Shown here: one piece after another, positions 26,173-37,149 of the stretch | Layout of the letters: each line of letters begins with the position of its first letter | How positions within the stretch are numbered: position 1 is the first letter of the stretch | Assembly: GCA_028699255.1 (NCBI GenBank) | Contig: JAQVUX010000006.1 | Coordinates: 25,928-89,927 of the forward strand | Length of the DNA: 64,000 nt | Direction of reading: 5' to 3' | From: Candidatus Omnitrophota bacterium | GTDB taxonomy: Bacteria; Omnitrophota; Gorgyraeia; 2-01-FULL-45-10 | Translations under genes and position numbers: made by a program | Notes under the pieces: generated by a model | What the model was told of the DNA's origin: nothing | Databases searched by the model: none | Seen by the model: the letters and a program-made list of their open reading frames with translations, nothing else

Positions 26173-26416
26173 CACCCCGGGAAGCGCGATTTGCCTTTCG
26201 ACAAAAGGCATGATATACTTTTATTGAAATAAAATATCCCTGCGGTGCGCGTGATTGGAACAGGAATCTTGAGCCAACAGTATGTTAAAAGGGAGTTTAA
26301 CTGAGTGAGCGCCTTGGCGTTCATTCGAGAGCTCCCACCTGATGAAAATCGGGGTCAAGATTACTTTCTCCACACGGCACAGGCGGGGATTTTTTTAATT
26401 TTGCACCCCTGAAGAA

Positions 26417-26537
26417 GCCCGCAGAGATTCGTGTCTCGCGGGACGCGAAATTTTGGCCATGCAAAATTTCACTGCGAAAAAAGTTCTCGCATCTGCTCGA
26501 ACTTTTACGCCCCGCTTAGACACGAATCTCTGCGGGC
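26417..26537. repeat. Perfect 20-bp inverted repeat (GCCCGCAGAGATTCGTGTCT / AGACACGAATCTCTGCGGGC) separated by 81 bp. Each arm is followed by GGACGCGAAATT.
   Basis: Seen directly in the rarA upstream intergenic region. Confidence 0.5.
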
Positions 26538-26586
26538 TATTTTCGGACGCGAAATTAAAAAAATCTTGGGGACATCACAAGGAAAA

Positions 26587-27891
26587 ATGGATTTATTTCA
26601 AAAAGAAGGCAAAAAGCCGAATGTGAACGAGCCAATGGCCGCCAGAATGCGGCCGACGACTCTCGACGGGTTTATCGGGCAGGAACACATCCTGGGCGCG
26701 GGAAAACTCCTGCGGCGGCTTATCGAATCCGACACGATATCCTCGATAATACTCTACGGCCCGCCGGGTTGCGGAAAGACGACCCTGGCTCTTATAATAA
26801 GCGAAAAGACGAACTCATATTTCGAGCGGATAAACGCCGCTTCCAATAATGTCGCCGACATGAGGAGGATAATAGATCAGGCCCATAAGCGTGAGGCGAT
26901 CGACGGTAAACGCACGATACTTTTAGTCGATGAGATCCACCGTTTTAACAAGGCCCAGCAGGACGTGCTGATGCCAGACGTAGAAGCCGGCAATCCGATA
27001 CTGATCGGCACCACGACCCACAACCCGTTTTTTTACGTGAACGCGGCCCTACTTTCCCGCTCCCAGGTTTTCGAGTTCAGGAAACTCTCCGAAGATGACG
27101 TGATAGCCATATTGAAGAATGCCCTCTCCGATAAGGAGAAAGGCTTGGGGAAGATACCCGTTGAAATGGATGTCGACGCGCTGGCGCATCTGGCGAAAGT
27201 CTCCGAGGGGGACGCCCGGCGCGCGCTTTTGGCTCTCGAAGTAGGCGCTCTTACGACGCCGGCCGACAAAAGTAAAAAAATTAATTTCACCATGAAGGTC
27301 GCCGAAGAATCGATACAGAAGAAGGCGGTCATTTATGATAAAGACGAAGATGGGCATTACGATACCATATCCGCGTTCATCAAATCGATGCGCGGCTCCG
27401 ATCCCGACGCTGTTTTATACTGGCTGGCGAAGATGATATACGCCGGCGAGGATCCGAGATTCATAGCGCGCAGGATCGTGATATGCGCCGCAGAGGATGT
27501 CGGCCTGGCGGATCCGCAGGCGCTTGTGCTGGCGAATGCGGCCCTGCAGGTAGCGGAATTCGTGGGTATGCCGGAAGCGCGGATACCGCTTGCGGAGGCG
27601 GCCGTATATGTGGCGTGCGCGCCTAAGTCGAACGCCAGTTATCTGGGCGTGGAGGCGGCGTTAAAAGATGTGGAGGGGGGTAAAACACTCGAGGTGCCGG
27701 ATCATCTGAAAGACGCCAGCCTTGATGGGGACGCCCTCGGCCACGGCAAGGGTTACAAGTATGCACACGACTATAAGGATCATTACGTAAAGCAGGAATA
27801 TAAGCCGTCGGACAAGCGTTATTATATACCGACGGATATGGGCCATGAGAAGCGGATCAAGGAGTGGCTCGAGAAGTTGCGCGGTAAGTAA
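26587..27891 (+). CDS. rarA: Replication-associated recombination protein A (RarA/MgsA AAA+ ATPase)
   Basis: MDLFQKEG start; GPPGCGKTTLA Walker A; MgsA C-terminal region. Confidence 0.8.
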   Translation: MDLFQKEGKKPNVNEPMAARMRPTTLDGFIGQEHILGAGKLLRRLIESDTISSIILYGPPGCGKTTLALIISEKTNSYFERINAASNNVADMRRIIDQAHKREAIDGKRTILLVDEIHRFNKAQQDVLMPDVEAGNPILIGTTTHNPFFYVNAALLSRSQVFEFRKLSEDDVIAILKNALSDKEKGLGKIPVEMDVDALAHLAKVSEGDARRALLALEVGALTTPADKSKKINFTMKVAEESIQKKAVIYDKDEDGHYDTISAFIKSMRGSDPDAVLYWLAKMIYAGEDPRFIARRIVICAAEDVGLADPQALVLANAALQVAEFVGMPEARIPLAEAAVYVACAPKSNASYLGVEAALKDVEGGKTLEVPDHLKDASLDGDALGHGKGYKYAHDYKDHYVKQEYKPSDKRYYIPTDMGHEKRIKEWLEKLRGK

Positions 27892-28015
27892 AATTGCGTC
27901 TATGCGTATGAAAAAAAACAACAGTTTAAACAGTTAAACAGCCAGAAAATTTTAATTGACAAAAGCGCAAAATGTGAGATAATAAGCACCAAGAAAAGTT
28001 TAACATAACCCTTTT

Positions 28016-28045
28016 AATTCCGCTCCCGAGAGGACGGAAAAGGAG
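28016..28045 (+). promoter_or_regulatory. PyrR-binding loop (pyr attenuator)
   Basis: UUCCGCUCCCGAGAGGACGGAAAAGG matches the PyrR binding-loop consensus UCCNGAGAGGCUNGNAAGG. Confidence 0.5.
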
Positions 28046-28061
28046 ATGAAGATGAAAAGTA

Positions 28062-28104
28062 ACCCGCTTATCTATGTAAAAATAGACAGCGGGCATTTTA
28101 TTTT
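28062..28104 (+). terminator. Attenuator terminator: CCCGCT...AGCGGG hairpin plus a T-tract just before pyrR
   Basis: Hairpin at 28062-28094 followed by ATTTTATTTT. Confidence 0.55.
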
Positions 28105-28118
28105 CCGGGGGTTCTGCC

Positions 28119-28667
28119 ATGACGCTTAAAGAGAAGTCCAAGATACTCGATAAAGACGCTATCGACAGGGTGCTGGAGAGAATAGCCCACGAGATAGTCG
28201 AGAACGATAAATCTGTCGGACGGATTGCGATAATAGGCATAAAGAATAGAGGCGCTTATCTGGGCGGGCGTCTTGCCGCGAAGGTCGAAAAGATAGCGCT
28301 TACCAAGATACCGGTCGGCGCGCTCGATATCACATTATACAGGGATGATCTTACGGAGGTTTCGGCCCAACCGGTGGTTCACGCAACCGAAATAGATTTC
28401 GATATCGCAGGAAAGAAGATAATTTTAGTCGACGATGTGCTTTATACCGGCCGGACGATACGATGTGCGCTCGACGCCCTGATAGATTTCGGCAGGCCTG
28501 GACAGATACAACTCGCAGTCCTGATAGACCGCGGACACCGGGAGCTTCCCATAAGGGCCGATTATGTCGGTAAGAACGTGCCGACATCGTTGAAAGAGAC
28601 GGTGGCGGTCAGGCTTTCCGAGACCGACGGTAAAGACGAAGTAGTCTTGTGCGAAAAGGCGGCGTAG
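28119..28667 (+). CDS. pyrR: Pyrimidine operon regulator / uracil phosphoribosyltransferase
   Basis: 182 aa; PRTase motif ILVDDVLYTGRT. Confidence 0.9.
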   Translation: MTLKEKSKILDKDAIDRVLERIAHEIVENDKSVGRIAIIGIKNRGAYLGGRLAAKVEKIALTKIPVGALDITLYRDDLTEVSAQPVVHATEIDFDIAGKKIILVDDVLYTGRTIRCALDALIDFGRPGQIQLAVLIDRGHRELPIRADYVGKNVPTSLKETVAVRLSETDGKDEVVLCEKAA

Positions 28668-28669
28668 GT

Positions 28670-29614
28670 ATGGCGGAAAAGAAGACGATTTGGACGAAGA
28701 AAGACCTTCTGGGGCTCGAATATCTCTCGAAAGAAGAGATAGAACTTATATTATACACCGCCGGAAGTTTTAAAGAGGTTACTACCCGCCAGATAAAAAA
28801 GGTTCCCGCCCTCCGGGGTAAGACGGTTGTAAATCTCTTCTATGAGCCTTCAACGAGAACCCGCACGTCATTTGAACTCGCCGCGAAACGCCTGTCCGCC
28901 GACGTAGTGAATATCGAGATAGAAGCATCGAGCGTGAAGAAGGGCGAAACGCTTATAGATACGGGTAAAAACATAGAGGCGCTCAAGATAGATATAATCG
29001 TGGTACGCCATTCCTCGAGCGGCGCGCCAAATATACTCGCCAGGTCGGTCAAGGCGCGCGTTGTAAACGCCGGCGACGGTTGGCACGAGCATCCTACCCA
29101 GGCGCTACTCGATATGTTTACCTTGAAGTCGAAACTTGGCAGGATAGAGGGCCTGAAGGTTAGCATCATCGGCGACATAGCGCATTCGCGCGTCGCGCGT
29201 TCAAATATATGGGGGCTGACGAAGCTTGGGGCAGAGGTTACCGTCTGCGCGCCGCGCATGCTGATACCCGACGGGATAGAGAAGATGGGCGTCAGGATAA
29301 CCTCCGATATAGAGGAAGCGTTAAGAGGCGCCGATGCTATAAACGTCCTGCGGATGCAGTTCGAGCGGGACGCGGCGCTCGCATTCCCGTCGAAGCTGGC
29401 ATATTTTAAGGAATACGGCATTACCGCCGAACGGCTTAGAGCCTGCAAAAAAGATATAGTTGTAATGCATCCGGGCCCGATAAATAGGGGGATAGAGATG
29501 TCGAGCGAGGTTGCCGACGGTAAAAATTCGGTGATATTGGAACAGGTGACGAACGGCATTGCGGTGCGAATGGCCGTTTTATACCTTGTAGCTTATGCAA
29601 AAGGGGTAGAATGA
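28670..29614 (+). CDS. pyrB: Aspartate carbamoyltransferase catalytic subunit
   Basis: STRTR and HPxQ motifs; ATG at 28670 (a GTG at 28649 is an alternative start). Confidence 0.85.
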   Translation: MAEKKTIWTKKDLLGLEYLSKEEIELILYTAGSFKEVTTRQIKKVPALRGKTVVNLFYEPSTRTRTSFELAAKRLSADVVNIEIEASSVKKGETLIDTGKNIEALKIDIIVVRHSSSGAPNILARSVKARVVNAGDGWHEHPTQALLDMFTLKSKLGRIEGLKVSIIGDIAHSRVARSNIWGLTKLGAEVTVCAPRMLIPDGIEKMGVRITSDIEEALRGADAINVLRMQFERDAALAFPSKLAYFKEYGITAERLRACKKDIVVMHPGPINRGIEMSSEVADGKNSVILEQVTNGIAVRMAVLYLVAYAKGVE

Positions 29615-30930
29615 ACAAAAGATATTTAATAAAAGGCGGAAGGGTTATCGACCCGGCCAATAAAATAGACGCGCTTCTTGATATAATAATTGCCGATGGC
29701 AAGATTGAGAAGATCGGCCAAGGTGATTTACACCCCGGGGTGGAAATCCCACCCCGGGGTGGAAATATAGAAGTAATAGACGCCAAAGGCAGGATAATCG
29801 CACCCGGGCTTATCGATATGCACGTCCACTTAAGGGAGCCGGGCCGTGAAGATGAAGAGACGGTCTGGACGGGTTCGCGCGCGGCCGTTACGGGAGGATT
29901 TACCGCGGTTCTATGTATGCCGAATACCGATCCGGCCATTGACAACCCCGCCGTGGTGAAAACATTGAAGGAAATTATTGCCAGGGATGCCGCCTGCCGC
30001 GTCTTTATATGCGGCGCCATAACGGAATCCAGAGCGGGAAAGAAGCTGGCAGATCTTACTAAATTTAAAAAAGAGGGCATTGTAGCCGTATCCGACGATG
30101 GCTCCGGCGTCCAGGACAAAAAAGTTATGCAGGACGCGTTAAAGGCCGCCGCTGTGACGGGAATTATCCCGATAGAACATTGTGAAGACGACGCTCTTAC
30201 TTGCGGCGGGGTAATGAATAATGGGTTTGTCTCGACGAAGGCGGGTTTAAAAGGGATAAGCGCCCGCAGTGAATACGATGCCGTAAAGCGCGACCTTGAG
30301 CTTGCCGGAAAATTTTCTACGCCAATACATATCGCGCATATAAGCTGTAAGGAATCGGTTGAACTCATTCGTACGGCGAAGGCCGCAGGCGTCAAAGTTA
30401 CGGCGGAGACGGCGCCGCACTATTTCAGCCTGACGGATGAGCGCTGTGCCACCTACGATACGAATACAAAGATGAATCCGCCGCTTAGGACAAAGGAAGA
30501 CGTGGAAGCGATAAAGGCAGGCCTGGCCGACGGTACTATAGACGCGATCGCGACCGACCACGCTCCGCACACAGATTCCGAAAAGGACGTCGAATTCGAC
30601 TACGCGCCGTTTGGCATAATAGGGCTGGAAACAGCAATCCCGCTCTGTATGATGGAACTGGTTGATAAAAAAATATTATCATGGAGCGGCCTTATTGCGA
30701 AACTTTCGACAAATCCGGCAGGCATACTCGGCGTCCCCGGCGGAAATCTTAGGGAAGGCGCTCTTGCGGACATAACTATAATAGATCCCGAGAAGGAATA
30801 TACGTTTAAAAAAGAGACGATAGTTTCGAAATCAAAGAATTCGCCTTTCATAGGCTGGAAGCTCAAAGGAAAAGCCGTAACGGTTTTTGTGGGCGGCACT
30901 CTTGTGATGAAGGACGAGGTATTGCTATAG
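29611..30930 (+). CDS. pyrC: Dihydroorotase
   Basis: DMHVHLREPG metal-binding motif; 439 aa. Confidence 0.85.
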   Translation: MNKRYLIKGGRVIDPANKIDALLDIIIADGKIEKIGQGDLHPGVEIPPRGGNIEVIDAKGRIIAPGLIDMHVHLREPGREDEETVWTGSRAAVTGGFTAVLCMPNTDPAIDNPAVVKTLKEIIARDAACRVFICGAITESRAGKKLADLTKFKKEGIVAVSDDGSGVQDKKVMQDALKAAAVTGIIPIEHCEDDALTCGGVMNNGFVSTKAGLKGISARSEYDAVKRDLELAGKFSTPIHIAHISCKESVELIRTAKAAGVKVTAETAPHYFSLTDERCATYDTNTKMNPPLRTKEDVEAIKAGLADGTIDAIATDHAPHTDSEKDVEFDYAPFGIIGLETAIPLCMMELVDKKILSWSGLIAKLSTNPAGILGVPGGNLREGALADITIIDPEKEYTFKKETIVSKSKNSPFIGWKLKGKAVTVFVGGTLVMKDEVLL

Positions 30931-30945
30931 GATAGATACCGATAT

Positions 30946-30982
30946 GACCTCCGAGGGCGACTTTATGTCGACCTCGGAGGTC
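30946..30982. repeat. 16-bp near-perfect palindrome (GACCTCCGAGGgCGAC / GTCGaCCTCGGAGGTC) between pyrC and the PHP nuclease gene
   Basis: Seen directly; no U-tract follows. Confidence 0.5.
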
Positions 30983-30995
30983 GGATGAGGTTAAT

Positions 30996-32231
30996 ATGCC
31001 GTTTATCGCTGATTTCCATATCCATTCGAAATATTCCCGCGCGACAGCGAAGGATATGGATCTGGCGAGCCTTGTAAAATGGGCGAAGATAAAAGGCATA
31101 TCGATGCTCGGCACCGGAGATTTTACTCACCCGTTATGGTTTTCAGAACTTGAGACGCGCCTTGAAAAGACTTCCGCGCCCGGCGTATACCGCTACGATG
31201 GTATCGATTTCATATTGACCGTCGAAGTCTCAAATATATATTTCAAAGCGGGCAGGACGAGAAAAGTCCATAATATAATATTCGCGCCATCGCTTGAAAC
31301 GGCGCGGGAAGTATCTGCCGCGCTGTCGGAATACGGGGAGCTGTCGTCGGACGGACGGCCCATATTAAGCGTGGAATGCGACAAGATGGCGAGGCTTCTC
31401 GCCCGGATAGATCCGAAGATATTTCTGATACCCGGCCATGCCTGGACGCCGCACTTCAGTATATTCGGCTCCAACTCCGGGTTCGATTCGCCGGAAGAGT
31501 GCTTTGAGGATCAGACGGATAAGATATTCTCGATAGAGACGGGGCTTTCGAGCGATCCGGGTATGAACTGGCGCTGGTCGAAACTCGACAGGTTCTGCCT
31601 TACATCAAACTCGGATGCGCACTCGCCGTCGAGGCTGGGCCGCGAGGCGAATGTATTCAAAGAGAAAATAGATTACGACAGCCTGGTTGAAATATTAAAG
31701 ACCAAAGATAAAGACAAATTTCTTTATACGATCGAATTTTTCCCGGAAGAAGGCAAATACCACTGGGATGGCCACAGAGGATGCAATGCGCGCCTCTGCC
31801 CGCAGGAATCGAAGACGATAAATAATATTTGCCCTGTGTGCGGCAAGAAGGTTACAATAGGCGTAATGCACCGGCTCGAAGACCTTTGCGACAGGGCTGA
31901 AGGTTATGTCGATGCGCGGAGCCCTTCTTTTAAAAGGATGGTGCCGCTTACGGAAATAATAGGCGCCGCATTCGGCGTCGGGGCAGGGTCCGTAAAGGTT
32001 GAGAGAGAATATTTCCGGCTGATAAAAAATTTCGGGACGGAGTTCAATATACTGCTGTGGATGGACGAGCGGGAGTTACAGTCCGCTCTTCCCGAAAGAA
32101 TAGCCGCAGGCGTAATAAACGTAAGAAAAGGCGATGTCGAAATAAAGCCGGGTTATGACGGAGAATACGGCACCGTCGATATTTTAAGAGACAGCGGCTC
32201 GCCCGGCGACAAACAACTGAGCTTCTTTTGA
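30996..32231 (+). CDS. PHP-domain nuclease with C-terminal zinc ribbon, endonuclease Q-like (TIGR00375-type)
   Basis: FHIHSKYSRA and GTGDFTHPLW PHP motifs; CNARLCPQESKTINNICPVCGKK zinc ribbon; 411 aa. Confidence 0.5.
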   Translation: MPFIADFHIHSKYSRATAKDMDLASLVKWAKIKGISMLGTGDFTHPLWFSELETRLEKTSAPGVYRYDGIDFILTVEVSNIYFKAGRTRKVHNIIFAPSLETAREVSAALSEYGELSSDGRPILSVECDKMARLLARIDPKIFLIPGHAWTPHFSIFGSNSGFDSPEECFEDQTDKIFSIETGLSSDPGMNWRWSKLDRFCLTSNSDAHSPSRLGREANVFKEKIDYDSLVEILKTKDKDKFLYTIEFFPEEGKYHWDGHRGCNARLCPQESKTINNICPVCGKKVTIGVMHRLEDLCDRAEGYVDARSPSFKRMVPLTEIIGAAFGVGAGSVKVEREYFRLIKNFGTEFNILLWMDERELQSALPERIAAGVINVRKGDVEIKPGYDGEYGTVDILRDSGSPGDKQLSFF

Positions 32232-32239
32232 GTAAAATT

Positions 32240-33028
32240 ATGAAACAAGTACAGGCAAAGATACTAAAGAACAAAGAAATCGCCAAAGGTTTCTACAGGA
32301 TGCGTATCGCGTCCTCATATCTTGCCGGTTATTCACGGCCGGGGCAATTTGTCGAGGTGAGGTGCTCGCAGGAGACCGACCCGCTCCTGCGCCGGCCGTT
32401 CGGCATTCACAGGGTCATCGACGCAGGCATAGAGCTTTTATATGAAGTCGTCGGCCGTGGAACGGATGCATTGTCGCAGAAAAAACCCGGAGAGACACTC
32501 GACATTATTGGGCCCCTCGGGAATGGTTTTGATCTCGGTCTTGCGACCTGCGCGCGTCAACGCCCGGCCATTCTGGTCGCAGGCGGTAACGGCGTGGCGC
32601 CATTATTCTTTTTAGCCGAAGAATTGAAGAGAAAAAGTATAAAAATTCATGTTTTGATCGGTGGGCGCTCGAAGGGGCATATATTATGCGAAAAGGAGTT
32701 TAAAAAACTCGGCGCAAAAGCGGTAATTACTACGGACGATGGCTCGAAGGGGCTTAAAGGTCTTGTGACAAACCCATTATTGACAGCGCTCTCAGCCGCC
32801 GCTTCTCGTCCGTCGGTAATATATGCCTGCGGGCCGACCGGTATGCTGAAGGCGGTATCACGCTTAGCATACAGTAGCGGCGTCCCGTGTCAGGTTTCGC
32901 TCGAAGAGCACATGGCTTGCGGTGTCGGTGTATGTTTAGGCTGTCCTGTAAAAGTTAAAACGGATAGCCGATACAAAATGGTATGCAAAGACGGTCCGGT
33001 TTTCGACGCCGGGGAGATAATATGGTAG
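32240..33028 (+). CDS. pyrK: Dihydroorotate dehydrogenase electron-transfer subunit
   Basis: FAD/NAD-binding fold; C-terminal CGVGVCLGCPV 2Fe-2S motif. Confidence 0.8.
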   Translation: MKQVQAKILKNKEIAKGFYRMRIASSYLAGYSRPGQFVEVRCSQETDPLLRRPFGIHRVIDAGIELLYEVVGRGTDALSQKKPGETLDIIGPLGNGFDLGLATCARQRPAILVAGGNGVAPLFFLAEELKRKSIKIHVLIGGRSKGHILCEKEFKKLGAKAVITTDDGSKGLKGLVTNPLLTALSAAASRPSVIYACGPTGMLKAVSRLAYSSGVPCQVSLEEHMACGVGVCLGCPVKVKTDSRYKMVCKDGPVFDAGEIIW

Positions 33029-33933
33029 ATCTTTCGGTTAATATCGGCAGATTGAAACTTAAAAATCCAGTTATGACCGCATCCGGGACGTTTGGCCCGG
33101 AATACGGCGAGCTCTTCGACGTAAATGCGCTCGGCGCCGTTGTATTAAAGACGATAACGCTTGAAGCCCGCGTCGGGAACCCGCCGCCGCGCATCGCGGA
33201 AACATTTTCGGGAATGCTTAATTCAATAGGTCTTGAGAACAAAGGACTCGATGATTTTATAAAGAACAAACTGCCGAAGGTAAAAGGGATAAAAGCACCG
33301 ATCGTGGTAAGTATAGCCGGTAATAACGAAAGAGAATATGCCTTGCTTGCCAAAAGACTTAGCGCTGTAGCGAAAATATCAGCGCTTGAGATAAACCTAT
33401 CGTGCCCCAACGTAAGGCACGGGACATTGGCCGGACTCATAGCGCAGGATCCCGACGTTACCGGAAGGATAGTCCGCGCCGTGAGAAGCTCGACGAGGTT
33501 GCCGTTAATCGCGAAGCTTACACCGAATGTTACGGATATTTCAGTGATAGCCGCGTCGGCCGAGAAGGCCGGTGCCGATGCCGTGCTTTTGGTTAATACG
33601 TTCCCGGCGATGGCCGTCGATATTGAAACGAAAAAGCCGAAGCTCGGAAATATAACCGGCGGCCTAAGCGGCCCGGCGATAAAACCTATCGCTTTAAAGA
33701 TGGTATGGGATGTTTACAATAAAGTGGATATTCCCATAATAGGCTCGGGCGGCATAATCAATTACAAAGACGCGATAGAGTTTATGCTCTGCGGGGCCAC
33801 TGCCGTACAGATTGGAACCGCCGTATTTACCGATCCCCGCACCCCGGGGTGCGTAATCAAAGATATAAGAAGATATTTAGAGCATGCCGGCTATCGCCGT
33901 ATAAAAGATATCATCGGAGGGTTAAAAGCATAA
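33022..33933 (+). CDS. pyrD: Dihydroorotate dehydrogenase, catalytic subunit (class 1B)
   Basis: MVDLSVNIGRLKLKNPVMTASGTFG start at 33022, overlapping the pyrK stop. Confidence 0.85.
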   Translation: MVDLSVNIGRLKLKNPVMTASGTFGPEYGELFDVNALGAVVLKTITLEARVGNPPPRIAETFSGMLNSIGLENKGLDDFIKNKLPKVKGIKAPIVVSIAGNNEREYALLAKRLSAVAKISALEINLSCPNVRHGTLAGLIAQDPDVTGRIVRAVRSSTRLPLIAKLTPNVTDISVIAASAEKAGADAVLLVNTFPAMAVDIETKKPKLGNITGGLSGPAIKPIALKMVWDVYNKVDIPIIGSGGIINYKDAIEFMLCGATAVQIGTAVFTDPRTPGCVIKDIRRYLEHAGYRRIKDIIGGLKA

Positions 33934-34647
33934 ATGGAACCGATCAAACAACTTATAGTAGCTCTGGACCTGAAGACTGAAGACGCCGCCATAGAAATGG
34001 CGGAAAAATTGAAGGAATATGTCGGATTTTTTAAGATCGGCCTCGAGCTCTTCTCCTCATGCGGGCCGCGCATAGTCGAGAGGATACGCGAAACCGGTTG
34101 TGACGTATTCCTCGACCTGAAATTTTACGACATCCCGACCACCGTCGCGAAAGCGTCCGTAGCGGTAACGAGCCTTAAGCCGTTAATGTTCAATGTGCAT
34201 GCCCTGGGCGGATATGAAATGATGAGACGTACGGCCGAGGCTGTGACGGCCGAAGCCGCGCGGCTCGGCATAGCGAAACCGAATATCCTGGCAGTTACAA
34301 TACTTACATCCTTTGACGAGAAGGCATTGAAGGATATAGGTGTTGAGGGCAGTCCCAAGGAAGCGGTTTTACGGCTTGCCCATCTTGCTAAAAAGGCGGG
34401 GCTGGACGGAGTGGTGGCGGCACCGACGGAGACAAAAGCCATAAGGCAGAATCTCGGCAAGGATTTTTTGATAGTGACTCCCGGAGTGCGTCCGGCATGG
34501 GCCGCCGTAGATGACCAGAAAAGGATAATGACGCCGAAGGAGGCCGTGGCGGCGGGGGCCGATTATATAGTAGTCGGAAGGCCCGTAACCGAATCCGCCG
34601 ACCCGGCTGACGCGGCGCAGGAGATATTAAGGGAGATGGAGTCATGA
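33934..34647 (+). CDS. pyrF: Orotidine 5'-phosphate decarboxylase
   Basis: IVALDL and DLKFYDIP motifs. Confidence 0.85.
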   Translation: MEPIKQLIVALDLKTEDAAIEMAEKLKEYVGFFKIGLELFSSCGPRIVERIRETGCDVFLDLKFYDIPTTVAKASVAVTSLKPLMFNVHALGGYEMMRRTAEAVTAEAARLGIAKPNILAVTILTSFDEKALKDIGVEGSPKEAVLRLAHLAKKAGLDGVVAAPTETKAIRQNLGKDFLIVTPGVRPAWAAVDDQKRIMTPKEAVAAGADYIVVGRPVTESADPADAAQEILREMES

Positions 34648-35213
34648 CGGAAAAAGATGTTTTAGGATTATTCCACGAAAAAAACGCCCTGCTTACCGGG
34701 CACTTTAAATTATCAAGCGGCCTGCACAGCCAGAATTATCTGCAATGCGCGCTCGTATTGCAGTATCCGGATATCGCGGAAAAGTTTTCGCGCGAGATTG
34801 CGAAAAAATTCCAGCAAAGTAAAATAGATCTTGTTGTGGGGCCTGCGCTCGGCGGGGTAACCCTCGCATACGAGGTCGCCCGCGCCCTCAAAGTGAGAGG
34901 GCTGTTCACGGAAAGACAGGAAGGGGCGATGGTGCTCCGCAGGGGGTTTGCGATCTCCGCCGGCGAGCGGGTACTGGTCGTGGAAGATGTCATAACGACG
35001 GGCGGTTCGACTAAGGAAGTGATGGATCTGGTTTCTAAAGCAGGCGGCGTAGTCATCGGGGTTGCAAGTATCATCGACAGGAGCTCGTCACCGGTAGATT
35101 TCGGCGCGCCGTTTTTTGCGCTGGCCAAGATAGACGTCAAGACCTATAAAGAGAGCGAGTGCCCACTCTGTAAAAACAATATTCCCATAACAAAACCCGG
35201 CTCGAGGAAGTAG
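34644..35213 (+). CDS. pyrE: Orotate phosphoribosyltransferase
   Basis: VLVVEDVITTGGS PRPP-binding motif. Confidence 0.85.
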   Translation: MTEKDVLGLFHEKNALLTGHFKLSSGLHSQNYLQCALVLQYPDIAEKFSREIAKKFQQSKIDLVVGPALGGVTLAYEVARALKVRGLFTERQEGAMVLRRGFAISAGERVLVVEDVITTGGSTKEVMDLVSKAGGVVIGVASIIDRSSSPVDFGAPFFALAKIDVKTYKESECPLCKNNIPITKPGSRK

Positions 35214-35270
35214 AAAATCCTAAATGATTGCGCCGGAAACAGCGATTATGGTATTATAATCTCTCTTAAG

Positions 35271-35344
35271 GGCAAGTAGCTCAATGGCGGAGCAATCGGT
35301 TTACATCCGATAGGTTACAGGTTCGACCCCTGTCTTGCCCACCA
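35271..35344 (+). tRNA. tRNA-Val (TAC)
   Basis: Acceptor GGGCAAG/CTTGCCC; anticodon loop TTTACAT; CCA encoded; TATAAT at 35254-35259 upstream. Confidence 0.8.
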
Positions 35345-35370
35345 CTTTAACTCAATAACATAACTATCTT

Positions 35371-37149
35371 ATGCACGCATTAACACTCATAATAGTAGCC
35401 CTACTCGTATTCGCGCTCGCGTACCGTTTTTACGCGAAGTTCATTACGGCGAAAGTTCTTGTTCTTAACGATAAGAATCAGACCCCGGCCCATACCTTTA
35501 AGGACGGACGCGATTATCACCCGACGAATAAATATGTCTTGTTCGGCCACCACTTCGCCGCTATATCCGGCGCGGGGCCTCTGGTTGGTCCTGTACTCGC
35601 CGCGCAGTTTGGTTACCTCCCCGGATTCCTGTGGCTTCTTATCGGCGCTGTTCTCGGCGGCGCGGTTCATGACGTGGTCATACTTTTCGCCTCCGTGCGC
35701 ACCAAAGGGCTTTCTCTTACGCGTCTGGCACGGAAGAATGTCAGTAAAACCGCCGGGCTCATAACCGGAATAGCGATTCTTTTTATAATCATCACTGCCC
35801 TGGCGGGGTTGGCCATAGTGGTGGTGAACGCGTTGAGCGAAAGTGCATGGGCCACATTCACCATAGCTATGACGATACCGGCCGCTCTCTGCGTCGCGTT
35901 TTACATGTACAAACTGCGCCCCGGTAAGGTAGTAGAAGCGTCGATCATAGGTGTCGTTATCGTGGTCGCGGGTGTCGTATTTGGCGAGCCTATCGCAAAG
36001 ACGGCGTTTGGCCAATACTTTTTATTATCAAAAACAGCCCTTTCAATAATTTTACCTATATACGGATTTATAGCGTCGGTCCTGCCTGTATGGCTTCTCC
36101 TATGCCCGCGTGATTATTTGAGCTCGTACATGAAGATAGGCACCATAATACTACTTGCCGGCGGCATATGTTTAGTCGATCCGATACTAAAAATGCCCGC
36201 GGTAACCAGTTATATCCATGGAGGGGGACCGATAATACCAGGGAAGGTCTGGCCCTTCGTGTGCATTACGATCGCATGCGGAGCCATAAGCGGTTTTCAT
36301 GCGTTAATAGCGTCCGGCACTACGCCCAAGATGATCGACAAGGAATCCGACATAAAGATGATAGGCTTCGGGGCCATGCTTGTAGAGTCGATCGTCTCCA
36401 TACTGGCGCTCATAGCGGCGACGGTACTATTGCCCGGGGATTATTTTGCCATAAATGTCCCGGCAGATGTATTCGCTAAAATGGGCCTGGGTACAACTCA
36501 GCTTGCTGAGATCGAGCGGATGACGGGGGAGACGCTCTCCGGCAGGGCGGGCGGGGCGGTGTCGCTCGCCGCAGGCATGTCGGTGATACTGTCGTCTATC
36601 CCCGGCATGAAGGGGCTGATGGGTTATTGGTACCATTTTGCGATCATGTTCGAGGCGCTCTTCATCCTTACTACGGTCGATACAGGCACGCGTGTAGCGC
36701 GTTATATACTGCAAGAACTCGCCAGGCTGGTCAAACCAAGGATGAAGTTCGACAAGACGCTTGCCGGCTCACTCTTGAGCGGCGCGGCGGTAAGTGCGCT
36801 ATGGGGTTATCTCGTCTATAACGGGGATATTACGACCATATGGCCGATGTTTGGCGTGGCGAACCAGCTTTTAGCGACGCTCGCATTGGCGATCGGCACG
36901 GTTTATATTTTGAAACATTCCAAGAACTGGAGATATGGACTTATAACGTTTATACCCGCCGTGTTCATGTTCGTTACCACGGTAACGGCCGGTATCATGA
37001 ACATAACCGATAATTATATTCCCAAGCATACCTTCCAGGGAAATATGAACGCGGCTTTGTCGGTTATAATGATAGCGCTCGTTATCATAATATTTATTGA
37101 AGCTGTAAAGAAGATATACAGTATGCGAAGGCAGTTATTCGTACCTTAA
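35371..37149 (+). CDS. cstA: Carbon starvation protein A (peptide/pyruvate transporter family)
   Basis: 592 aa polytopic membrane protein with CstA N-terminal signature. Confidence 0.85.
   Translation: MHALTLIIVALLVFALAYRFYAKFITAKVLVLNDKNQTPAHTFKDGRDYHPTNKYVLFGHHFAAISGAGPLVGPVLAAQFGYLPGFLWLLIGAVLGGAVHDVVILFASVRTKGLSLTRLARKNVSKTAGLITGIAILFIIITALAGLAIVVVNALSESAWATFTIAMTIPAALCVAFYMYKLRPGKVVEASIIGVVIVVAGVVFGEPIAKTAFGQYFLLSKTALSIILPIYGFIASVLPVWLLLCPRDYLSSYMKIGTIILLAGGICLVDPILKMPAVTSYIHGGGPIIPGKVWPFVCITIACGAISGFHALIASGTTPKMIDKESDIKMIGFGAMLVESIVSILALIAATVLLPGDYFAINVPADVFAKMGLGTTQLAEIERMTGETLSGRAGGAVSLAAGMSVILSSIPGMKGLMGYWYHFAIMFEALFILTTVDTGTRVARYILQELARLVKPRMKFDKTLAGSLLSGAAVSALWGYLVYNGDITTIWPMFGVANQLLATLALAIGTVYILKHSKNWRYGLITFIPAVFMFVTTVTAGIMNITDNYIPKHTFQGNMNAALSVIMIALVIIIFIEAVKKIYSMRRQLFVP

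Follow-up and report, generated by a model that had tools for sequence, protein, structure and literature searches.

An endonuclease Q homologue encoded as an accessory cistron at the pyrC/pyrK junction of Candidatus Omnitrophota pyrimidine operons

Endonuclease Q (EndoQ), a lesion-specific endonuclease with a PHP domain, has been described as mainly archaeal, with representatives in "a limited number of bacteria" (PMC5961232), and its pocket accepts uracil and hypoxanthine while shutting out thymine and adenine (PMC5961232, PMC8307549). EndoQ cuts the phosphodiester bond on the 5' side of dU, dI, dX, or an abasic site. The EndoQ proteins of Bacillus pumilus and B. subtilis are active enzymes, and bacterial EndoQ "families 2 and 3" were defined by Shiraishi et al. 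2017, as these points are cited in PMC5961232. Clamp motifs have been noted previously in bacterial EndoQ homologues, the Bacillus proteins with their predicted beta-clamp motif among them (PMC4858679). No pyr-operon context has been reported for Bacillus EndoQ. A second described system that bears on the locus analyzed here is the PyrR-attenuated pyrimidine operon of the Bacillus type, in which the gene order is pyrR-pyrP-pyrB-pyrC-pyrAA-pyrAB-pyrK-pyrD-pyrF-pyrE and which in Bacillus has three PyrR leaders. We analyzed a stretch of 64,000 nucleotides (the window) from a Candidatus Omnitrophota bacterium (GenBank assembly GCA_028699255.1, contig JAQVUX010000006.1, positions 25,928 to 89,927), in which the gene for a 411-amino-acid EndoQ homologue, here called endoQ, stands in a pyr operon with the order pyrR-pyrB-pyrC-endoQ-pyrK-pyrD-pyrF-pyrE. 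Our overall reading, to which we give a probability of about 0.72, is that this is a bacterial EndoQ encoded as an accessory cistron of a PyrR-controlled Omnitrophota pyr operon, inherited vertically with it and lost repeatedly.

The initial annotation of the window, made without database searches, had placed a PHP-domain protein of this length between pyrC and pyrK and had likened its architecture to that of TIGR00375-type EndoQ proteins, and we found that both statements hold. TIGR00375 is the sole NCBIfam match of the protein and is covered over model positions 2 to 373 of 374 (E=1.6e-52), while a Pfam search gave a weak PHP_C match and nothing else; the precomputed annotation of an identical protein includes PF27218 (MJ0043_C). 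When solved structures were searched, real matches were limited to Pyrococcus furiosus EndoQ (PfuEndoQ; PDB 5zb8 and 7k30-7k33, all at about E=1e-50), with 5zb8 aligned at E=1.4e-50 over query residues 5 to 396 and chain residues 5 to 382, and the two proteins are 33% identical over 374 aligned residues. An AlphaFold2 model of the protein, with a predicted local distance difference test (pLDDT) value of 81.3 and a predicted template-modeling score (pTM) of 0.84, was compared with known structures by Foldseek and matched 5zb8 and 7k30 at template-modeling (TM) scores of 0.80 to 0.83 (5zb8, E=1e-31, about 400 aligned columns), and the predicted structure has the three-domain architecture and fold of PfuEndoQ; the next matches were other PHP phosphoesterases, at TM scores of 0.17 to 0.48 and E values of at least 3e-3. 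Neither a HisJ-type nor any other non-EndoQ PHP enzyme family was found among the Pfam and NCBIfam matches of the protein, its best matches are all EndoQ, and the alternative that the initial annotation had raised, another PHP family such as a histidinol phosphatase without the EndoQ residues, does not describe it. Several close Omnitrophota homologues carry the NCBI name "endonuclease Q family protein." The endoQ open reading frame (ORF) is, as judged from its sequence and modeled fold, a full-length and genuine member of the bacterial EndoQ branch. One detail of the earlier description has to be corrected: the zinc ribbon that had been assigned to the C terminus is a central Zn module, while the last third of the protein consists of the helical MJ0043_C domain and, after it, the predicted clamp-binding tail.

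The window protein was aligned with 80 genomic homologues, and the residues described for PfuEndoQ were located in this alignment. Each metal ligand of PfuEndoQ (H8, H10, E76, H84, H139, D193, and H195) has an identical counterpart in the window protein (H8, H10, E77, H92, H148, D207, and H209), and these positions are invariant over the 80 homologues, the H8/H10 column being a gap in one truncated sequence. The lesion-pocket residues T142, E167, G169, L170, S171, and N191 are likewise kept, as T151, E181, G183, L184, S185, and N205, and are invariant across the homologues save for the N205 equivalent, which is kept in 74/80 and varies in 6/80; the roles of the metal-ligand residues are those given in PMC5961232, and the roles of the pocket residues are those given in PMC5961232 and PMC8307549. 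The Zn domain is present and aligned, with the predicted ligand set H260, C263, C279, and C282, whereas the Zn site of PfuEndoQ is C4 (C249, C252, C268, and C271), and Trp150 stands in the place of PfuEndoQ Phe141. The window protein ends in KQLSFF, and a Qxx[LF][FLI] motif is found at the extreme C terminus of 41 of 43 Omnitrophota sequences and of many other-phylum homologues. The QLSFF tail matches the bacterial beta-clamp-binding consensus motif and should, on that prediction, act as a clamp tether. A clamp-interaction motif also occupies the extreme C terminus of PfuEndoQ, where it is a PIP box for PCNA rather than a beta-clamp motif. The PIP box stimulates archaeal EndoQ through PCNA, and the bacterial tail parallels it. 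Unlike PfuEndoQ, the window protein belongs to a mesophilic bacterium and has its gene in a pyr operon.

The initial annotation had called the position of endoQ inside the pyr operon non-canonical, and a comparison with related genomes bears this out while showing that the position is conserved. For this comparison, 80 genome loci were retrieved via EndoQ and compared with the pyr proteins of the window. In all of the 42 closest genomic homologues (54 to 80% identity), endoQ lies at the pyr junction after pyrC, in most cases followed by pyrK-pyrD-pyrF-pyrE, whereas pyr neighbors were found at 0 of the 38 other-phylum loci (47 to 54% identity). The depositors' labels of the 42 loci read Omnitrophota/Omnitrophica in 28 cases, uncultured Planctomycetia/Planctomycetales in 13, and uncultured bacterium in 1. 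At the other-phylum loci, pyr-type matches amounted to an antisense pyrB-like match 4 kb off in L067 and a phosphoribosyltransferase match of 35% identity in L045, with no others. The gaps on either side of endoQ in related loci are mostly shorter than 20 nucleotides (nt). In two loci, L022 (5173-9547) and L104 (4897-9263), carA-carB is retained between endoQ and pyrK, giving the Bacillus-type order plus endoQ. A gene of about 150 amino acids with a Mut7-C RNase domain (PF01927, E=1.4e-40) and a CxxC...CPxC motif lies between pyrC and endoQ in 10 genome loci (L005, L010, L016, L017, L023, L024, L036, L037, L039, and L041) and 2 metagenome loci (L093 and L104), and in L036 (11239-13555) genes for a flavodoxin, a SLOG/LOG-like protein, a UPF0047 protein, and Fpg/MutM stand between endoQ and pyrK. 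In the library of papers searched, none links EndoQ with Omnitrophota or with pyrimidine biosynthesis. This context, a pyrC/pyrK junction that holds every endoQ copy found in Omnitrophota but is occupied by the gene in some operons and not in others, appears to be undescribed; the protein itself is a new member of a known, already annotated family.

The variable presence of endoQ was seen in a further sample of metagenome contigs, which were retrieved via PyrC and so are unconditioned on EndoQ. Among the Omnitrophota-type operons of this sample with a readable downstream gene, 16 have endoQ after pyrC and 9 run from pyrC straight to pyrK (L084, L085, L088, L090, L092, L094, L095, L103, and L130). 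In a neighbor-joining tree of PyrC, the states with and without endoQ are interleaved, with about 6 to 7 state changes, and the basal lineages have the gene, a pattern expected if an ancestor had endoQ and its descendants lost it cleanly more than once. endoQ is an accessory gene of the Omnitrophota pyr operon. We also found that EndoQ and PyrC distances co-vary (Spearman 0.82, Mantel p=0.001), that the ratio of nonsynonymous to synonymous substitution rates (dN/dS) of endoQ, taken between the window and strain L081 (98% identical), is 0.10, a value like those of the pyr genes, and that the GC content at third codon positions (GC3) of endoQ is the same as that of the flanking genes. Thus, endoQ is a functional but dispensable gene with vertical inheritance. 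A recent horizontal acquisition was considered and rejected in view of its flank-like GC and GC3 values and by the co-variation of its distances with those of PyrC.

The features of the window operon are listed in Table 1, in which the scores and cutoffs of the pyr genes are those of NCBIfam profiles. The operon has the regulator and the gene succession of the Bacillus-type operon and, as a sub-threshold match, a putative PyrR-binding leader that includes a terminator, but it is without pyrP and carAB and has a DNA-repair nuclease cistron after pyrC. The sigma-70-like promoter upstream of the leader, whose function is predicted from sequence, is the best consensus match in positions 27800-35500, with 11/12 positions matched. 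A loose form of the leader motif is found upstream of pyrR in 37/37 related loci; a strict regular expression for the PyrR loop (TCCNGAGAGG) found it in 8/37 loci and was too strict, and the full count came from inspection and a looser pattern. We detected one PyrR leader in the window operon, compared with three in Bacillus, and found neither a second PyrR site nor a plus-strand terminator-like site between pyrR and pyrE. The simplest reading, and the most likely one from these sequence features, is a single PyrR-attenuated transcript that would include endoQ. From this operon architecture, it is plausible that uracil repair would be regulated together with the pyrimidine pool, as the initial annotation had suggested, and the repeated loss of endoQ weakens this idea. 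The gap between pyrC and endoQ is 65 nt long.

Table 1. Features of the pyr operon, of the EndoQ homologue, and of their immediate surroundings; positions are those of the window, and amino acid residues are given where stated
Feature	Position	Strand	Remarks
6S RNA	26234-26393	+	RF00013, 72.3 bits (gathering score 46.4); just upstream of the RarA/MgsA-type gene
RarA/MgsA-type AAA ATPase gene	26431-27891		Precedes the pyr operon
Sigma-70-like promoter (predicted)	27956-27983	+	TTGACA, 16-nt spacer, TG-extended GATAAT; precedes the pyr leader
PyrR-binding leader (predicted)	28007-28102	+	Binding hairpin UCCCGAGAGG, then terminator hairpin and U-run; ends 17 nt before pyrR
pyrR (attenuation regulator/uracil phosphoribosyltransferase)	28119-28667	+	NF003549, 248.6 bits (cutoff 138)
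pyrB (aspartate carbamoyltransferase)	28649-29614	+	NF002032, 408 bits (cutoff 263); ORF start GTG 28649; product scored, 314 amino acids from start 28670
pyrC (dihydroorotase)	29611-30930	+	TIGR00857, 436.5 bits (cutoff 279)
Intercistronic inverted repeat/RNA stem-loop	30946-30961/30967-30982	+	16-nt arms, 1 mismatch, 94% complementarity, 5-nt loop
Probable Shine-Dalgarno sequence GAGG (read from the sequence)	30987-30990	+	5 nt before the endoQ ATG, outside the stem
endoQ	30996-32231	+	411-amino-acid ORF; PHP-domain lesion-specific endonuclease homologue
EndoQ PHP domain	Residues ~1-250
EndoQ Zn module	Residues ~256-290
EndoQ helical MJ0043_C domain	Residues ~300-396
EndoQ beta-clamp motif QLSFF (predicted)	Residues 407-411
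pyrK (dihydroorotate dehydrogenase electron-transfer subunit)	32228-33028	+	NF000799, 214 bits, and NF000798, 198.6 bits, both just under cutoff; start TTG 32228 (overlaps endoQ stop) or ATG 32240; Pfam NAD_binding_1 and DHODB_Fe-S_bind annotated on an identical gene
pyrD (dihydroorotate dehydrogenase B, catalytic subunit)	32983-33933	+	NF005574, 392.6 bits (cutoff 269); likely start 33022
pyrF (orotidine monophosphate decarboxylase)	33934-34647	+	NF001273, 284 bits (cutoff 193)
pyrE (orotate phosphoribosyltransferase)	34644-35213	+	TIGR01367, 228.5 bits (cutoff 150)
tRNA-Val (anticodon TAC)	35270-35344	+	57 nt past pyrE
CstA-like transporter gene	35371-37149		Follows the tRNA

Elsewhere in the 64-kb window we found no carAB, Mut7-C gene, or second UvrD-like partner. 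The operon is bordered by the genes and RNAs given at the two ends of Table 1, and the GC content of the rarA-pyr-cstA genes (26431-37149) is 0.50 to 0.54, compared with 0.461 for the whole window, so that other parts of the window are markedly more AT-rich.

Outside the phylum, the relatives of the protein differ in both architecture and context. An exhaustive search of representative sequences returned 3,607 clusters at E <=1e-3, and the EndoQ cluster representatives are spread over Omnitrophota, Patescibacteria, WOR-3, Aminicenantes, and other phyla. Their number, more than 3,600, far exceeds the "limited number of bacteria" of the literature, and EndoQ is thus a repair option with a wide distribution in bacteria. 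The closest homologues of the window protein come from Candidatus Omnitrophota metagenome-assembled genomes, and the Omnitrophota protein is stand-alone, whereas many of the nearest relatives outside Omnitrophota are fusions of 1000 to 1200 amino acids in which an N-terminal EndoQ module is joined to a UvrD/PcrA-type helicase (P0123, P0125, P0128, and most top representatives; also the loci L053 and L054), and in L058, L065, and L071 UvrD is adjacent. The existence of such fusions accounts for the legacy name "DNA helicase UvrD" on a few stand-alone Omnitrophota proteins. Two EndoQ homologues, P0121 and P0124, contain inteins with LAGLIDADG domains. A general endoQ context outside Omnitrophota was sought and rejected, as the neighbors are heterogeneous, none of them is a pyr gene, and no common context emerged; they include PolX-like genes in 4 Patescibacteria loci, membrane proteins, and, in 3 loci each, topoisomerase I and the adjacent UvrD genes.

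In the mechanism that we propose, by homology to characterized EndoQ, the protein would be a Zn-dependent PHP endonuclease that flips a deaminated or missing base (deoxyuridine, deoxyinosine, or an abasic site) into the pocket beside the metal site and nicks the strand immediately 5' of the lesion, while the C-terminal QLSFF tail would tether the enzyme to the beta sliding clamp. The gene would have entered the pyrC/carA junction, now the pyrC/pyrK junction, in an Omnitrophota ancestor. From there it would have passed down vertically along with the rest of the operon, kept by purifying selection, and would have been cleanly lost several times. Its expression would come from the operon promoter under PyrR attenuation, with translation from its own GAGG ribosome-binding site.

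Several observations weigh against this account of the gene and its control. The TIGR00375 score of 179.1 bits is well under the curated cutoff of 326.6 bits set for this hypothetical equivalog model, and the active-site loops 151-159 and 181-188 are of low confidence in the AlphaFold2 model. The proposed DNA wedge of PfuEndoQ, Trp144 in the beta7-alpha5 loop, is His153 in the window protein, so that this feature of EndoQ is missing here; the position is His in 27 and Trp in 15 of the Omnitrophota sequences and Trp in 32 and His in 6 of those from other phyla, and the wedge loop is described as only "relatively conserved" (PMC5961232). The first Zn ligand is His and not Cys in 80/80 bacterial homologues (the H260 codon lies at about 31773-31775), and because PfuEndoQ has Cys249 at this place, the bacterial Zn site is HCCC rather than C4. 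The match of the leader to RF00515 spans the full model but, at 34 bits, falls short of the gathering score of 54, with E values of 0.0039 in the local search and 0.11 when 10 kb are considered. The losses can be counted only approximately, because the tree is a simple neighbor-joining tree of one protein. Finally, a very stable stem-loop just before endoQ could shift its expression relative to that of pyrRBC.

This stem-loop had been reported by the initial annotation as a strong 16-bp palindrome separating pyrC from endoQ, and we found that it is real and stable and that its arms are indeed 16 nt long, with the reservation that one pair is mismatched. The RNA folds at -37.9 kcal/mol (z = -4.8), and 0/200 shuffles were as stable. 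Hairpins with arms of at least 16 nt and at most one mismatch occur twice in the 64 kb, the other one being inside pyrC, at 29726-29766. That second hairpin belongs to an in-frame 27-nt strain-specific insertion in a variable PyrC loop, in which a tandem 17-nt unit (CACCCCGGGGTGGAAAT, two copies) forms an 18-nt-arm palindrome, and this insertion is absent even from the 98%-identical strain L081. The intercistronic palindrome is present in the identical contig L082 and also in L081, where the outer stem is kept by one compensatory C:G to U:A change but the inner stem is altered; relatives at 78 to 80% protein identity are without the segment of about 50 nt, and in the alignment their pyrC-endoQ gap does not exceed about 15 nt. 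The palindrome is species-specific and therefore lies outside the conserved arrangement. It was rejected as a conserved intercistronic feature when pyrC-endoQ gaps of 20 to 120 nt were folded in relatives, as the window is strongly structured, L012 is moderately so, and no others are; it was rejected as a repeated element, as this site is the only one in the window with the arm GACCTCCGAGG; and it was rejected as an intrinsic terminator, as the sequence after the stem is GGATGAGGTTAAT, both strands lack a T-run, and the terminator scan reports nothing there. Among 82 loci, the other arm, CCTCGGAGGTC, is palindromic again in the identical contig L082 alone, and L024 has one unpaired match. A rival explanation holds that the element is functional and, as a terminator, an RNA processing site, or an operator bound by a protein, makes the expression of endoQ differ from that of pyrRBC, and its stability, its non-random character, the compensatory change in L081, and its location exactly in the intercistronic gap would all suit such a role. 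However, the missing T-run and terminator-like site, the altered inner stem in L081, the moderate structure at a single other locus, and the absence of the element from all relatives at <=80% identity, whose gaps are a few nucleotides, argue otherwise, and a strong block here would cripple the pathway, since pyrKDFE lies downstream. We consider a role in setting endoQ expression improbable; the best view of the palindrome is that of a recent insertion at the level of the species, forming a stable stem-loop between the two cistrons that may protect or punctuate the mRNA.

Three other explanations concern the gene itself. The placement of endoQ could be adaptive, with PyrR attenuation coupling the incision of uracil- or hypoxanthine-containing DNA to the pyrimidine pool or to growth-linked nucleotide demand, so that more nuclease would be made when uridine mono- and triphosphate (UMP/UTP) are low and the balance of the deoxynucleotides dUTP and dTTP, or the replication load, favors uracil in DNA. 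The constancy of the junction in the 42 Omnitrophota loci, even in rearranged operons (L007, L022, and L036), the single upstream PyrR leader with tight gene spacing, the gathering of other nucleic acid enzymes at the junction (the Mut7-C genes, and Fpg/MutM in L036), and a clamp motif that suggests action at replication forks are all in its favor, but vertical inheritance alone explains the constant position, endoQ is absent from 9/25 related operons sampled regardless of endoQ, with several independent losses, the 38 other-phylum loci have no pyr linkage, and low UMP should lower dUTP as well, which blurs the direction of any benefit. We therefore hold adaptive placement to be unlikely, and its stronger form is doubtful: that the pyrC/pyrK junction is a selected "repair slot," in which EndoQ, joined in some operons by a Mut7-C nuclease or Fpg, is expressed in proportion to de novo pyrimidine synthesis and UMP/UTP attenuation tunes the incision of uracil- and hypoxanthine-containing DNA. 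An antiviral role has been proposed for the bacterial (Bacillus) EndoQ (PMC8307549), and the main task of the nuclease could be to attack foreign DNA with uracil or other modified bases, not to maintain the genome. Like defense genes, endoQ is accessory and patchy, and is sometimes adjacent to a Mut7-C nuclease, but its vertical inheritance, housekeeping-like purifying selection, and host-like composition do not fit well with this, the clamp-binding tail predicted for the protein and its operon placement suit housekeeping repair, and no defense-island context was seen, PADLOC not having been searched; we find a mainly anti-phage function very improbable. We give almost no credence to a last reading, in which the EndoQ ancestry is misleading and the protein now serves pyrimidine metabolism as a phosphoesterase of small molecules or RNA. 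It would account for the metabolic neighbors and for His153 at the wedge position, the PHP-fold relatives at Foldseek ranks 5 to 9 include nucleotide phosphoesterases and RNase AM, and a uracil-accepting pocket could in principle take a uracil nucleotide. However, the three EndoQ domains are kept, the Zn module and the DNA-binding helical domain among them, the UvrD-fused homologues show the same pocket and metal residues without variation, the Trp wedge is retained in 15/42 Omnitrophota orthologues, and a C-terminal beta-clamp motif is sensible only for a DNA enzyme.

An EndoQ that is an accessory, vertically inherited cistron of the Omnitrophota pyr operon remains our preferred reading. If the link between endoQ and the pyr genes is merely historical, the result is a routine annotation plus a tidy synteny note; if the "repair slot" were true, it would be an unrecognized regulatory link from nucleotide-pool sensing to base-damage repair. 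With one fixed position, a predicted metabolite-sensing attenuator, and repeated loss, Omnitrophota endoQ forms a clean natural experiment, and the tuning of repair to the pyrimidine pool is therefore directly testable.

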